A stretch of DNA of 64,000 nucleotides, taken from Escherichia coli. GTDB lineage: Bacteria > Pseudomonadota > Gammaproteobacteria > Enterobacterales > Enterobacteriaceae. The DNA is taken from the NCBI RefSeq assembly GCF_003018255.1, contig NZ_CP027440.1, one strand, 5' to 3'. The translations under genes were made by a program, and so were the position numbers. The notes beneath the pieces are model-generated. The model had not been told where the DNA came from and made no database searches. It saw only the letters and a program-made list of their open reading frames with translations. Positions 10,611 through 60,894 of this stretch are shown piece after piece; the stretch's first letter is position 1; each line of letters opens with the position of its first letter.

Positions 10611-10654
10611 TAACCTTCAGTGCCATTTTTTTATCGTGGCGTTTGTACCTGTTG

Positions 10655-21936: not shown

Positions 21937-22070
21937 ATGCCGGATGCGGCGTGAACGCCTTATCCTGCCTACCGTTCCAACACCAATTGTAGGCCTGATA
22001 AGACGCGGCAAGCGTCGCATCAGGCATCGTGCGCCGAGTGCCGGATGCGGTGTGAACGCCTTATCCGGCA
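21937..22070. repeat. BIME cluster: three REP elements
   Basis: gatgccggatgcggcgtgaacgccttatcc, ggcctgataagacgcggcaagcgtcgcatcaggc and tgccggatgcggtgtgaacgccttatccggca between convergent yphA and yphB. Confidence 0.8.
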
Positions 22071-26647: not shown

Positions 26648-27631
26648 TTAGGGCAGACCATCAACGTGCGTTGCCAGCCACTGTTTACCGTCTTCCGTTT
26701 TGGTATAGAGATCGATTGGCACCTGAATCACTTTTTCACCGTCGGCTTGTTTATTGATAACCTTCAAAGTTTGCGCGAAAACAGCATTGCCCATTTTCTT
26801 ACCGGAAATATCCACCACCGCTTTCAGCACCTGATTGTTTTCCAGCTCCTGAGCAATTTCAGTGGTCATATCCGAACCGAAAACAGCAATTTTTCCGGCC
26901 TGATTTTGATTACGTACCGCTTTTACCGCGCCGAGTGTCGCACCGCCCGATTCCCCCATAATGGCGTTGAGATCCGGCGTGGAGATAATTAGTTTTTCAC
27001 CAACGGAAATCGCTTTATCTAAAACAGTCCCTTCCTGATTAGCGACTATTTGCGCGCCGGGAACGCGGGATTTTAATACCTCTTCAAATCCTTTACGTCG
27101 CTGCACACAAACTTCAAAGGCTTCGCAATTGATGACGGCAATTTTCGGCTGGTCAATTTTATTGGCAATAAAATAATCGGCGGCAGCGTTACCCAGTTTT
27201 TTACCAAATTCCAGCGGATCGCCGACCAGATACGCCGAGACATATTTATCGACACCTTTTTGATTAATACAGGTGTTGTAGCAAATCACCGGAATACCCG
27301 CTTCACTGGCGCGACGAACGGTACGACTACTGCCATTTTCAGACACTGCCGATAAAATAATGGCATCGACATTACGCGCCACGAGGGTATCAACAAAGGT
27401 ACTTTCTTTCGAAATATCGCCCTGAGCGTTAGTTTCAATTAACTGTACCTGTACTGAAGAATCTTTTGCCGCATCCTGAACGCCCTGACGCACTCCGGCG
27501 TAATATCCCTGGGTATCAAGGTATATTGCGCCAATAGTCATTTCTTTATCCGCAGCCCTGGCAAATAGTGCGCTACCCAATAGCGTAGCCATTAATAATA
27601 AATTACGGGTTCTTGTCATTTTTTTAGGCAT
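26648..27631 (-). CDS. yphF: periplasmic sugar-binding protein of an ABC transporter
   Basis: ORF track, 327 aa; N-terminal signal peptide MPKKMTRTRNLLLMATLLGSALFARA. Confidence 0.9.
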   Translation of the reverse strand: MPKKMTRTRNLLLMATLLGSALFARAADKEMTIGAIYLDTQGYYAGVRQGVQDAAKDSSVQVQLIETNAQGDISKESTFVDTLVARNVDAIILSAVSENGSSRTVRRASEAGIPVICYNTCINQKGVDKYVSAYLVGDPLEFGKKLGNAAADYFIANKIDQPKIAVINCEAFEVCVQRRKGFEEVLKSRVPGAQIVANQEGTVLDKAISVGEKLIISTPDLNAIMGESGGATLGAVKAVRNQNQAGKIAVFGSDMTTEIAQELENNQVLKAVVDISGKKMGNAVFAQTLKVINKQADGEKVIQVPIDLYTKTEDGKQWLATHVDGLP

Positions 27632-27727
27632 AGTGCCTCCTGTAGGGTTTTTATTTACAACGGCTTATTTTAATTATTTGAGCGTGAGCGGCAGCGCGTG
27701 CCGCTCAAATATTACAGTTAATAAGGT

Positions 27728-30700
27728 TTAGTGAACGTAGCTAAAAATAAAAGGCATCACGGTGGTGAATAATGCCGCTTTCGGCCAGGCTGGATTAATC
27801 GCCATCAATTCAGCGCGAGCAGATTCATAGTGCGCAACCTCCCCGAGTCCCGCGGACGCCAGCATCGCCACCATCAGGCATTTTTCTTTATGCTGCTGTT
27901 GTAAATCGCCATACAGCGACAACAGGTCAGGTTGTGAAACAGCAAAGAAATCCGCCTCGATACTGGTTTTCGCCATCTCTTGCGCCCACTGTTTCATTTC
28001 ACTAAACAGTTGCTGTGCGGTGTGTTGTTCGCCCAGCAGTCGCAGCGCCATTCCTTGCCAGAAGAGATAATCAACCGGCTGATCGTTGTAATAACTGTGA
28101 ATGTTAATGGTGCGATCGCCAGTCGCCGCCAGACGTAAACAACGCGTCGCTTCAGTTTCATCGCCCTGCGCGTTGGCGCATATCGCCTGCCAGAACCAGA
28201 TGTCGTTGTCAGTTTGCCCCGGTAAACGGCCTTCGCTTAAATTCTCCGGATAATGCAACGCGGCATGAAGCAGTTCGCTGGCCTGCTGCGGCTCTCTGGC
28301 ATCAAGATGCTGCCAGGCGCGTAATAACTGGTTGAGGATAAACTGACTGGTGATCTTCCCTTCCCCGCCTTCCCACGGGTGGAATTTGCGCGTGGCGAGA
28401 ATGTCCGCCGCTTTGTCTGCCTGACCCGTGAGATGCCACAAATTGAGCAGTTCTGCGGTCATGTCGTCGCGTTTCAGCGCAATTTCCAGATTATTTTCCA
28501 GACGCGCCAGTCGTTTCTCCGGTGTGACACCGCTTAACTTATCCAGCAAATCCCGTTCGAAAAGCAGACGTGCATCCTGCGGCGCAAGCTGATAAGCATT
28601 ATCAAGATAACGCGCGGCCAGCTCATAATCGTGTTGCTTATTCCACGCATGGATCGCTAACCCGCGCCAGCCGTCGGCAAACTCCGGCGACATCTCTACG
28701 CAACGTTGCCATAAAGTAATGGCTTTGTTGTAGCTGCACTTGTTGTAGTAGAAGCAGGCCAGTAAATGACGGGCAAACCAGCACTCTTCAATACTCTCCA
28801 GCGCCGCCACTTCTTCCAGCGTATTCGGGAAACGGACAAACTGTGGGAAGACATCAATGGCTTTTGTGACCAGTTCGCCGCGTTCAGCTTTCGGCAGCAA
28901 GCTGGCTTGCAAGTAAAGCGGCAGCGTGCGCTGGCAGTCCAGTGCGTTCAGCATCTCTGCCGCCAGGGTGGGCATTCCCCAGTTAATCAGTTGCCCGGCG
29001 GTCATCAGGGCGTTAACGTCGCGTCCCTGACACAGACCGCGCCACTGCGCGAGGGCTGATTCGCTACGACCATCGAACCAGTTCAGCCACCACAGAGTGG
29101 CGTTCAGCGGATAATCACGCAGCAGTTTCTCGCGCTGCAAACGCGCGTTGTCCTGACGACCACTTAACACCAGCAGCAGATTATGCAGGCAAAGCACTTC
29201 CTGATTGGTTGGGCAGGCGCGAAGACTTTGTTGGCAAAAATCCAGACCAGCGTCGAAGTGACCATTACGCGCCGCCAGCCGTGCCAGACCATAATAGCCA
29301 CCTGCTTTACTGTTGCCGCTCCAGACCGCCCGCCAGAAATCCTCTTCGGCTTGTTGATATTGCCCCTGACGTTCGTAAGCACTGGCGCGAATCAAACTCG
29401 CCTGTCCGCACTGCGGATTTTTGTTTAGCGCATGTGCGCGTTTCAGCGCCTGAGTGGCATACGCCACCGCTTGCGGGAAATCTGCTCGGTTATATTCCAG
29501 CATCGCCAGCGCCAGGTTACAGCGATAATCCAGCGGATCCAGCGCCACGCCGCGCAGGTAGTAATCGAACGGTGAACGGCTGGCGTGATGATATTGCTCC
29601 AGATGCTGACCGATAAACCAGGCTTCATCTGTACTGGTAATGTCTTGTGCTGCCAGTGGCGCTTTGGCGACGTCCGGCAACGGCAACTCTTGCGGCTGAT
29701 GTTCCTGATAACTCAGTGTGATATTGCCGTCGGCATCGGAGAGTTCAATGGTCAGCCTTTCAGGATTGATACCGTGCAACACGCCCTGGATGGCGGTCGC
29801 TGGTGTCAGGGCCACGGCATCATCGAGCAACGCGTTGCATTTGCCGATTTCGCGGATCGCCAGACGGTATCCTTTCAACGGAGAGATGGCATACAGCCCC
29901 CACTCAATCCCCCGCTCGCTACGCTGGAGTTTAATCACCGCATCGCGGGAGGCGTTTTGCACCATGCCCAAAGAATGGTAAGGCAGGAAATACTGCTCAA
30001 AACGCTTCTCTTCGTAAGCATCAAGCCAGGTAAAATCGGGCTGGTTATCGGCAAAAATACCAGTCATCAGTTCGATATACGGGCCGTTATTGTCGGTCAG
30101 ACTCTTATCCCACGCCTGGCCAAATTCACTGTGTCCCCAGCTCCACTGTTTTTTACCTGGCGCAATATGGTGGTTGGCAACGTGCAGCAAACCGCCATCT
30201 TCATCGTGACACCACGCGCCAACAAAATCGTACTGTGATTTTTCAGCCATATATGAGGTTGGAACGGGCACATTTTTATAGCGAGAAATGTCCACTCCGG
30301 CGGAGTAGTCCACTTTGTAGTAAGTGCCGGTGGCGATGGGGAAAGCGGAGACGGCCCGTTTGCCGTGATCAAACACCGCCGTTACATCCGGCGGGAAGAC
30401 GCTCTGATGCCCTTCACCCCCTTTCACTGCCGGGTTGGCCCACCACAAGAAATGACGCGGCGTGGCGTTGCCGTTATAGACGCGGCTGGCAATTTCCAGT
30501 GCCGCCCGGTCAGGGCGCAGGGTGAAACCTGTCATCACCTGTAAACCGTGCATCGGCTCCGTTTCGCCGACCCACACGGTTTGTGCGCCGTCTTCATGGG
30601 CTTCGAGGGTGAAATCGACGGGCATAAAGGTGGTCGGGCGATGGTGTTGCGGCCAGTTAAACTCAATCCCGCCGGAGATCCACGGCCCCAGCAACCCCAC

Positions 30701-31009
30701 CAGCGCCGGTTTAATGACTTCATTATGATAGACAAAATCGCGCTGTTTCACTTTATCCCACGCGCGATGCACCCGACCGCCCAGCTCCGGCAGGATCATC
30801 ACTTTGATGTAGTCGTTTTCCAGCCACACCGCCTGCCAGGATTTCAGGGTTTTCTGCTCGCTCAGCGTATCGGTCACGCCGTAGGGATAAACCGCGCCGG
30901 ACGATCCCTGATAAACGCGATTTTCCAGGAACATGGGATGTATATCCTGCGGCCCGGTTTCATAGGTCGGGATCTCAACGCGCTCTTGCCACACTTTTAC
31001 TGGAGTCAT
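27728..31009 (-). CDS. yphG: large conserved protein of unknown function: N-terminal domain plus TPR-like helical repeats
   Basis: ORF track 27728..31102; start moved to ATG at 31007-31009 (MTPVKVWQERVEIPTYE...) behind a GAGG Shine-Dalgarno, 1093 aa. No obvious signal peptide. The C-terminal two thirds look like helical TPR repeats by composition; this is an impression, not a domain search. Confidence 0.88.
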   Translation of the reverse strand: MTPVKVWQERVEIPTYETGPQDIHPMFLENRVYQGSSGAVYPYGVTDTLSEQKTLKSWQAVWLENDYIKVMILPELGGRVHRAWDKVKQRDFVYHNEVIKPALVGLLGPWISGGIEFNWPQHHRPTTFMPVDFTLEAHEDGAQTVWVGETEPMHGLQVMTGFTLRPDRAALEIASRVYNGNATPRHFLWWANPAVKGGEGHQSVFPPDVTAVFDHGKRAVSAFPIATGTYYKVDYSAGVDISRYKNVPVPTSYMAEKSQYDFVGAWCHDEDGGLLHVANHHIAPGKKQWSWGHSEFGQAWDKSLTDNNGPYIELMTGIFADNQPDFTWLDAYEEKRFEQYFLPYHSLGMVQNASRDAVIKLQRSERGIEWGLYAISPLKGYRLAIREIGKCNALLDDAVALTPATAIQGVLHGINPERLTIELSDADGNITLSYQEHQPQELPLPDVAKAPLAAQDITSTDEAWFIGQHLEQYHHASRSPFDYYLRGVALDPLDYRCNLALAMLEYNRADFPQAVAYATQALKRAHALNKNPQCGQASLIRASAYERQGQYQQAEEDFWRAVWSGNSKAGGYYGLARLAARNGHFDAGLDFCQQSLRACPTNQEVLCLHNLLLVLSGRQDNARLQREKLLRDYPLNATLWWLNWFDGRSESALAQWRGLCQGRDVNALMTAGQLINWGMPTLAAEMLNALDCQRTLPLYLQASLLPKAERGELVTKAIDVFPQFVRFPNTLEEVAALESIEECWFARHLLACFYYNKCSYNKAITLWQRCVEMSPEFADGWRGLAIHAWNKQHDYELAARYLDNAYQLAPQDARLLFERDLLDKLSGVTPEKRLARLENNLEIALKRDDMTAELLNLWHLTGQADKAADILATRKFHPWEGGEGKITSQFILNQLLRAWQHLDAREPQQASELLHAALHYPENLSEGRLPGQTDNDIWFWQAICANAQGDETEATRCLRLAATGDRTINIHSYYNDQPVDYLFWQGMALRLLGEQHTAQQLFSEMKQWAQEMAKTSIEADFFAVSQPDLLSLYGDLQQQHKEKCLMVAMLASAGLGEVAHYESARAELMAINPAWPKAALFTTVMPFIFSYVH

Positions 31010-31126
31010 GGTGCCCTCAATATTAACAAGACATACTGAATTAAAAGATTTGTGGCAGTGTATTGAACAATCTGGCAATGTTTTCGCGGAATAATCACGC
31101 AATTAACTAAACAAGGTTTAGTGAAG

Positions 31127-58252: not shown

Positions 58253-58525
58253 GTAACGCATCTGTTTTTGTTTGTCATGCTGTAGACGGATCATTATCTA
58301 TCATTATAAGTCTACAGAATCTGAACATCGCATTATCTGTGTAGAAATGCCCATTTAACTGCCTGAAGAGTAACCCAACGGCCTTTTTATTTCACCACCT
58401 AATCCTCCACCAGCCAGTAACTTCTCTTTTTCTCGCCGCCCTGAGTCAGCGTGTTTAGTCACTGTAACAAATATTAAAATAGCAGGTGTTTAATCGCACA
58501 ACATGATGCTATGCTGACCAAACCA

Positions 58526-60894
<2,369 letters not shown>

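Follow-up and report, generated by a model that had tools for sequence, protein, structure and literature searches.

The palindrome considered here lies in the yph cluster of Escherichia coli, within a 64-kb stretch of DNA that is referred to below as the window (the whole of the sequence analysed). According to the RefSeq annotation of an identical strain and of K-12, the cluster begins with yphH, a divergently oriented gene encoding a ROK regulator, and continues with yphG, yphF, yphE, yphD, yphC and yphB. The annotated product of yphG (27728-31009 as annotated, minus strand) is a DUF5107 protein and that of yphF (26648-27631, minus strand) is an ABC-transporter substrate-binding protein. 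Gene order and annotation agree with the first-pass annotation in treating the two genes as co-oriented neighbours, since they are same-strand members of one cluster; that they are co-transcribed is assumed, on the strength of the gene order and of spacers as short as 26-33 nt in some species. The open reading frames, both RefSeq annotations and the sequence place a 96-nt intergenic spacer (27632-27727, minus strand) between them, which on the transcribed strand runs from the yphG TAA stop codon (27730-27728) to the yphF ATG (27631-27629). Transcription of this minus-strand pair yields the reverse complement of the string quoted in the first-pass annotation; between the yphG stop codon and the yphF ATG, the message has the sequence ACCTTATTAACTGTAATATTTGAGCGGCACGCGCTGCCGCTCACGCTCAAATAATTAAAATAAGCCGTTGTAAATAAAAACCCTACAGGAGGCACT. 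The yphF Shine-Dalgarno sequence AGGAGG (27636-27641, minus strand) lies inside a conserved ACCCTACAGGAGGCAC and is kept in all genera, including the species with short spacers. The 401 bases around the palindrome have a match in 5421 of 5426 complete E. coli genomes, at 94-100% identity.

Two details of yphG itself should be mentioned. The program-made open reading frame begins at a TTG at 31102 and is 1124 aa long, while the annotated ATG is at 31009 and has GAGGG before it; the extra 93 nt (31010-31102, minus strand) correspond to the conserved, noncoding yphH-yphG regulatory region. The last 16 codons of yphG contain a terminator-like hairpin with a T-run (27743-27776, minus strand) that is separate from the palindrome. 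As reported by a terminator scan, it consists of GGCATTAT..GTGATGCC, with 8 pairs, and then the tail TTTTATTTTT; the T-run codes for Phe-Ile-Phe, and translation across 27743-27776 probably keeps this hairpin inactive.

An inverted-repeat search of the window found perfect arms TGAGCGGCA/TGCCGCTCA at 27685-27693 and 27699-27707, separated by a 5-nt loop (27694-27698). On the transcribed strand these form the conserved stem-loop UGAGCGGCA-cgcgc-UGCCGCUCA (27685-27707, minus strand), a perfect 9-bp inverted repeat with six G-C pairs, in which GAGCGGC (27706-27700) paired with GCCGCTC (27692-27686) makes up an invariant 7-bp core. The palindrome and its 5-nt loop had been recognised correctly in the first-pass annotation, which gave the stem as 8 bp, one pair short of the 9 bp found here, and placed the quoted string at about 27677-27712, while it actually occupies 27677-27710. 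Folding energy, which had been proposed as a check, indicates a stable structure: a 47-nt RNA carrying the window allele folds at -16.1 kcal/mol (z = -3.2), and the K-12 allele at -16.0 kcal/mol. Even with up to three mismatches allowed, the 23-mer occurs nowhere else in the window and has zero matches in shuffled sequences. The window has 22 perfect inverted repeats with arms of 9 bp or more and loops of 3-8 nt (about 14 of them distinct), compared with 2.0 +/- 1.8 in dinucleotide shuffles, so that perfect hairpins of this size are about 10-fold more frequent than in the shuffles. The palindrome exceeds chance, and it is an ordinary kind of element.

Of 5426 E. coli genomes, 5411 have the palindrome, each of them once and always on the chromosome, and a check for recurrence found it at no second genomic place, either in these 5411 genomes or in the window at up to three mismatches. 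The earlier remark that it is not a typical REP sequence therefore holds, given this single copy, its dissimilarity to the window's own REPs and its failure to match the consensus. The REP consensus GCCGGATGCGGCGTGAACGCCTTATCCGGC finds three REPs in the window (at 10654, 21939 and 22040), and the palindrome is not among them. A REP/BIME or mobile element was ruled out by the single copy, the lack of any phage or true plasmid copy and the REP mismatch. No phage matches to the palindrome were found; in a plasmid collection the query was mostly covered by chromosome-sized Escherichia records only, the other matches being short, weak and from unrelated genera; and in a metagenome scan for the flank together with the hairpin, the true hairpin turned up solely in a yphG-yphF context, the other matches being GC-rich coding sequences with no stem. 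Likewise, a known RNA family was ruled out by an Rfam scan of the window and seven orthologous loci, in which no match overlapped the hairpin and none reached the gathering score. The sole Rfam match in the spacer, RF02699 (27626-27677), lies 3' of the hairpin and scores 20.5 bits against a required 88 (E = 2). Elsewhere in the window, a three-unit REP/BIME cluster (21939-22069, plus strand) occupies the convergent yphA-yphB junction, where K-12 has a single REP (K-12 locus L002, 8775-8810); the spacer there is 148 nt long in the window and 47 nt in K-12.

The inverted-repeat search also returned a second perfect pair, TATTTGAGCG/CGCTCAAATA, at 27675-27684 and 27702-27711. On the transcribed strand its distal arm, CGCTCAAATA (27675-27684, minus strand), is allele-specific and pairs with TATTTGAGCG (27702-27711). 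Since the left arm takes part in this outer pairing too, in a shifted register, only one of the two pairings, outer or inner, can form at a time. What had been described as a larger imperfect palindrome enclosing the stem is thus an alternative to the inner stem rather than a structure nested around it, and it was not borne out as a conserved feature either, strain alignment and allele frequencies identifying it as a derived allele. The inner hairpin is identical in 10 of 10 aligned E. coli strains. The five bases directly 3' of it (27680-27684) read CGCTC in the window (GAGCG on the plus strand) and TCACA in K-12 and O157. CGCTC occurs in about 1578 of 5411 E. coli genomes (29%) and the TCACA type in about 71%, these frequencies being identity classes obtained with a 67-nt query and calibrated on K-12 (89.6%) and strain ES1 (91.0%, TCACA). 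Among the outgroups, E. albertii has TTGCC, and E. whittamii and divergent E. coli have TCACT; CGCTC is absent from all of these and is therefore the derived form.

Template switching within quasi-palindromes produces short clusters of mutations, as described by the Ripley model. All five adjacent positions are substituted between CGCTC and TCACA at the same length, and the CGCTC block lengthens an older 5-nt TATTT/AAATA complementarity to a perfect 10-bp repeat. On the comparison of the alleles, the block looks like a single short template-switch mutation in the quasi-palindrome. According to folding predictions, the ensemble of the window allele is divided between the outer pairing (75%) and the conserved inner stem (25%), compared with about 100% inner stem for K-12. 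The two natural alleles, separated by one apparently templated 5-nt change, amount to a ready-made natural experiment on the importance of the stem.

Conservation was assessed in a comparison set of 24 Enterobacterales loci in which yphG and yphF are adjacent. Escherichia, Citrobacter, Raoultella, Pluralibacter, Phytobacter, Entomohabitans and other Enterobacteriaceae share a module that reads, from the yphG stop, GTTwACTGwAAT, 4 nt, GAGCGGC-loop-GCCGCTC and an 8-9-nt variable linker, and then rATGTTTAGAATATGTGAAAT (block 2), a length-variable region, ACCCTACAGGAGGCAC and the ATG. Across 13 non-redundant enterobacterial lineages, column identity is 0.99 in the left arm and 0.97 in the right arm, compared with 62-70% in the loop, 35% in the linker, 47% in the downstream spacer, 80% at the coding end of yphG and 0.76-0.79 in block 2 (the TAGAAT block). 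All 18 distinct sequences compared, which represent about 10 genera, have the 7-bp core, while the loop varies in both sequence and length (5-7 nt) and the gap between GAGCGGC and GCCGCTC is 6 or 7 nt, depending on the lineage. The first-pass annotation had named a lack of conservation in related genomes as grounds for discarding its proposal; the stem proves to be near-invariant from Escherichia to Citrobacter, Raoultella and Phytobacter, among others. The distance from the hairpin to the yphG stop is fixed and that to yphF ranges from 45 to 150 nt, which ties the element to the 3' end of yphG.

The remainder of the spacer is considerably more variable. Spacers outside Escherichia (L016, L018, L020-L022, L024, L025, L028, L030) are 131-193 nt long, with the exception of BIGb0383, which has 90 nt and lacks block 2. 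Most non-Escherichia spacers contain a second GC hairpin, unrelated in sequence between lineages and lost in Escherichia, and the Yersiniaceae-like genomes Ewingella, Rahnella and bin27 have a different hairpin at the equivalent place. The base of the helix is lengthened in differing registers in UBA3516 (13 bp), Entomohabitans, Raoultella, L117 and the window allele. A conserved outer helix was dropped as a candidate, since the pairings seen in many lineages sit in differing registers and can be neither aligned nor counted. The register-varied extension of the helix, the second hairpins and the replacement hairpin of Ewingella, Rahnella and bin27 favour a structural role. Four lineages (L019, L023, L034 and L035) have a spacer of only 26-33 nt, with no hairpin, no block 2 and no copy of the operator-like box described below. 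These lineages imply that the entire module was deleted at least twice independently; it is thus dispensable, and the cluster can exist as a simple operon.

Several other observations were made in the course of this comparison. In the L034 record (CACSKA010000009.1), whose title names Chryseobacterium sp. 18061, the yphH-yphG-yphF arrangement is of the Enterobacteriaceae type and YphF is 87% identical to that of E. coli; the record is probably a mislabelled or contaminant contig. Homologs of YphF in alpha- and beta-proteobacteria were uninformative on the spacer, as they adjoin GntR/FCD regulators and have no yphG beside them. Non-Escherichia spacers have an A-rich AAACAACAATAAAT run before the yphF ribosome-binding site that resembles the Hfq ARN motif. 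The Citrobacter/Raoultella loop region GGCCTGACCCGCC and the sequence 5' of the yphF Shine-Dalgarno, ATGCCTGACCCTACAGGAGG, have a 9-mer in common, GCCTGACCC (loci L022, L024, L025, L030, L142 and L147). A 12-codon open reading frame beginning at a TTG in the left arm, in the same frame in both alleles and ending in TAA or TAG, was rejected on inspection by eye, since it lacks a Shine-Dalgarno sequence as well as conservation in other genera.

In the RNAalifold consensus of the aligned spacers, the 7-bp core helix is present and the covariation term is -0.1; of 500 shuffles, 70 score at least as high as the alignment itself. A count of pairs found no compensatory double changes in the seven core pairs. 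The few changes in the stem are mostly G.U-compatible on the sense strand (GU twice and UG once in the core, GU twice in the top pair), and two-sided changes occur only in the flanking pairs 36-58 and 44-50. Sense and antisense folding showed no asymmetry over the 24 spacers (mean +0.85 kcal/mol; 10 negative, 12 positive). With neither covariation nor strand asymmetry, function at the RNA level and function at the DNA level are inseparable. As judged from the alignment, the palindrome is under constraint, and both levels would fit.

Next to the hairpin lies a second conserved element, the quasi-palindrome O3 (ACTAAACCTTATTAACT, 27716-27732, minus strand), which overlaps the yphG stop codon and was identified by a position weight matrix (PWM) score of 21.0 bits and by nhmmer cross-matches. 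Its extended form covers 23 bp (about 27713-27735) and ends 8 nt 5' of the hairpin, so that the box measures 17-23 bp overall. A paralogous box, O1 (ACTAAACCTTGTTTAGT, 31106-31122, minus strand), is found in the divergent yphH-yphG region beside the yphH start. O1 reads ACTAAAC-CTT-GTTTAGT, with perfect 7-bp arms around a 3-nt centre, and is kept from Escherichia to Budvicia, Rahnella and Ewingella; the form common to O1 and O3 is ACTAAAC-N3-GTTwAsT. The PWM was built from the yphH-side boxes alone and scanned against both strands of the 64-kb window (128 kb), where it ranked O1 first (26.4 bits) and O3 second, and an independent nhmmer profile agrees on the paralogy of the two. Most other genera have a PWM match of 11-26 bits at the O3 position. 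The match falls to 4.7 bits in BIGb0383 and is missing from RIT691, two genomes in which the hairpin outlasts the box, while box and hairpin are jointly absent from the four short-spacer lineages. A third copy near the yphG ribosome-binding site was considered and is absent from the top PWM matches. The third-best match in the window, ACCAAACCATGTTTAGT (58517-58533, plus strand), is located upstream of nadB amid TGTTTA...TAAACA repeats, which we take to be NadR boxes; as a member of a yph regulon it was rejected as a partial chance resemblance in that region.

The ROK regulators NagC and Mlc recognise AT-rich sites of about 23 bp with an odd centre, and NagC requires a pair of operators together with looping of the DNA (PMC4288165). 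The third ROK regulator of E. coli, YphH, is described as uncharacterised. Since the size of the box (about 23 bp), its odd centre and its AT-richness match the NagC/Mlc sites, and since YphH is the local ROK protein, we infer that O1 and O3 are a candidate YphH operator pair. The repeated box, which is strongly supported, provides a concrete and testable operator prediction for one of the few uncharacterised E. coli ROK regulators. The yphG-yphF junction is also picked out by it as a regulatory node, and the box is in this respect a more useful result than the palindrome.

Among the explanations considered for the palindrome itself, the one that we tentatively favour, at somewhat less than an even chance, is an intercistronic RNA stem-loop at the 3' end of yphG that serves as a decay barrier or processing determinant. 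We infer both that it acts as RNA and that it acts on decay or processing. The yphG-yphF(EDCB) transcript would carry a stable stem-loop about 22 nt past the yphG stop codon which, having no U-tract, probably terminates transcription inefficiently in Escherichia. Its role would instead be to stop exonucleases that degrade in the 3'-to-5' direction and, perhaps, to make RNA polymerase pause. Once an endonuclease had cut the AU-rich sequence downstream, the yphG segment would stay protected, with the transporter segment decaying or being processed apart, and the yphG and transporter halves of the message would be uncoupled. Differential mRNA stability and such an uncoupling, both put forward in the first-pass annotation, are plausible. 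If the element is a decay barrier or processing site of this kind, it would explain how yphG, encoding a large cytoplasmic enzyme, and the ABC-transporter genes could be expressed at different levels from one cluster. Control at the RNA level by the hairpin and at the DNA level by the candidate O3 operator may coexist at this junction.

Several findings were counted in favour of the stem-loop explanation: the site on the transcribed strand between co-oriented genes, the stability of the fold, the retention of the arms while loop and linker vary, the G.U-compatible changes, the register-varied extension, the other hairpins in the spacers, the anchoring to the yphG stop and the single copy. The variation of the loop between 5 and 7 nt also fits a hairpin, whereas a dimeric operator should not tolerate such variation in the spacing of its half-sites. 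On the other side, covariation is lacking, and the arms are conserved as sequence, which fits protein recognition equally well; there is no strand asymmetry; the module is deleted in four lineages; and the stem is predicted to form only 25% of the ensemble of the window allele. The accessible parts of the supplements searched likewise contain no 3' end, transcription start site (TSS) or coverage for the locus.

Unlikely, although still carrying some weight, is the explanation that the junction is transcriptional. A weak or decayed terminator (or insulator) would end the yphG transcript, and yphFEDCB would be transcribed from an internal factor-dependent promoter, with the conserved TAGAAT/TAAAAT as its -10 and under the control of the upstream O3 box. 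The terminator scan called the hairpin only in RIT691 (one of the four spacers scanned), where the 9-bp stem is followed by GTTTTCGATG, and several genera have short T-runs 3' of the stem, both of which speak for this explanation. Against it, the hairpin was not called in the window, Citrobacter Cu233 or C. amalonaticus. The Escherichia alleles have one or two T in the first 8 nt 3' of the stem and no U-tract, and their flanks, U-rich on the 5' side and A-rich on the 3' side, are the reverse of what a terminator requires. A canonical terminator in Escherichia was ruled out by the missing U-tract and the lack of a terminator call, and the partial termination suggested in the first-pass annotation is without sequence support in this genus, given the A-rich 3' flank and the scarcity of T in those 8 nt.

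The evidence for the promoter half of the transcriptional explanation is divided as well. A -10-like hexamer, TAAAAT (27667-27672, minus strand; TAGAAT in K-12 and most genera), lies in the conserved AT-rich block 2. Block 2 keeps a nearly fixed distance to the O3 box (45-46 nt), even as the spacer downstream ranges from 90 to 193 nt and the rest of the spacer varies two-fold, and O3 is in turn strongly paralogous to the box on the yphH side. The conservation of this block at a fixed distance from the box leaves room for an activator-dependent internal promoter. The promoter scan, however, called no sense-strand sigma-70-like promoter in any spacer scanned, and the best match in a separate scan, CTGCCG-16-TAAAAT/TAGAAT, is a weak one (8/12) with CTGCCG as its -35. 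For a sigma-70 promoter in the spacer, the candidates were thus weak 8/12 matches with no sense-strand call. CRP/LacI-like half-sites (the TCACA of the K-12 allele, a TGTGA within block 2, and TTTGAGCG compared with lacO) were dropped, their partner half-sites being poor when inspected by eye.

Published expression data bear on the same question. The accessible parts of the Term-seq tables of PMC7815308 list no yphF or yphG 3' ends, and the operon may be unexpressed there. In the accessible parts of the TSS and operon supplements of PMC4782308, PMC6131387 and PMC3415461, neither gene has an entry by name or coordinate, a lack of start sites that counts against an internal promoter unless the operon was silent in those datasets. 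The yph operon, a sugar-uptake operon, was probably silent in the conditions of the Term-seq and TSS datasets searched. A proteomics study reports YphF as induced alongside catabolite-sensitive sugar-binding proteins and does not list YphG (PMC8753852). This listing of YphF without YphG is weak evidence of uncoupled expression, and it is in keeping with the transcriptional explanation.

We consider it rather improbable that the palindrome has no selected function and is a neutral or hitch-hiking quasi-palindrome reshaped by hairpin-templated mutation and gene conversion. The window allele, as read above, shows template-switch mutation at work at this very site; four lineages have deleted the module and kept the operon; covariation is lacking; and the operon is apparently silent in standard conditions. 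These points are set against a 14-nt stretch that is invariant across genera while the adjacent linker has 35% identity and spacer lengths differ two-fold, a contrast that is hard to explain without purifying selection, and against the independent hairpin found at the same place in the Yersiniaceae-like genomes. Least probable of all, and indeed very doubtful, is that the palindrome is a DNA site for a sequence-specific protein (a second type of operator, over the -35 of an internal promoter) or a cruciform-prone site: the sequence-conserved arms with zero compensatory changes, the lack of strand asymmetry, the fixed geometry of the O3 box and TAGAAT block and the joint loss of hairpin and O3 box in four lineages would suit it, but its half-sites are 5, 6 or 7 nt apart with differing loop sequences, a lineage-dependent spacing where a palindromic operator is expected to keep a fixed one, the hairpin persists where the O3 box is degenerate (BIGb0383, 4.7 bits) or absent (RIT691), and the palindrome could be matched to no known factor or motif, YphH, the one regulator encoded locally, belonging to the ROK family, which binds AT-rich 23-bp sites.

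Beyond the stem-loop explanation that we favour for the palindrome, the hairpin and its neighbours can be combined into a speculative reading that we hold to be improbable as a whole. The junction would be a conserved regulatory unit of about 75 nt, made up of a ROK-type operator, the invariant hairpin and the TAGAAT block, with YphH binding at O1 and O3. YphH would either loop out the whole of yphG or control an internal promoter that serves the transporter genes, and the hairpin, in RNA or in DNA form, would be recognised by its invariant sequence rather than act as a generic structure. In practical terms, the adjacent operator prediction and the natural contrast between the two alleles are the parts of this work most worth an experiment.

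The elements of this junction can be compared with several known systems. Like the NagC/Mlc operators, O1 and O3 are AT-rich quasi-palindromes of about 23 bp with an odd centre, present in two copies of which one is at the regulator's own gene. As putative YphH sites they differ from those operators in their core, ACTAAAC-N3-GTTTAGT, with TA rather than TT/AA at +/-5,6, and the spacing of 3.4 kb between O1 and O3 was also counted as a difference. The window allele resembles the template-switch mutations of quasi-palindromes in that a cluster of adjacent substitutions makes the flank an exact reverse complement of the opposite arm; it differs in that the case is made from allele comparison and the direction of change from outgroups. 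REP/BIME elements have in common with the palindrome that they are extragenic, GC-rich, imperfect palindromes within an operon region, but REPs are multi-copy with a defined consensus, and the palindrome is single-copy and off that consensus. Intrinsic terminators and attenuators are similarly GC-rich and located shortly after a stop codon, and the RIT691 ortholog even has the T-run; the Escherichia hairpin differs from them in its A-rich 3' flank and U-rich 5' flank. Stem-loops that stabilise mRNA between cistrons are known from the malE-malF REP hairpin, papB-papA and the Rhodobacter puf operon. The yphG-yphF hairpin shares with these a stable GC-rich structure on the transcribed strand with AU-rich flanks and no U-tract, in an ABC-transporter operon whose subunits need different expression. 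It differs in being single-copy and not a REP and in lying upstream rather than downstream of the binding-protein gene, and its arms are sequence-invariant across genera, which is unusual for a purely structural barrier.
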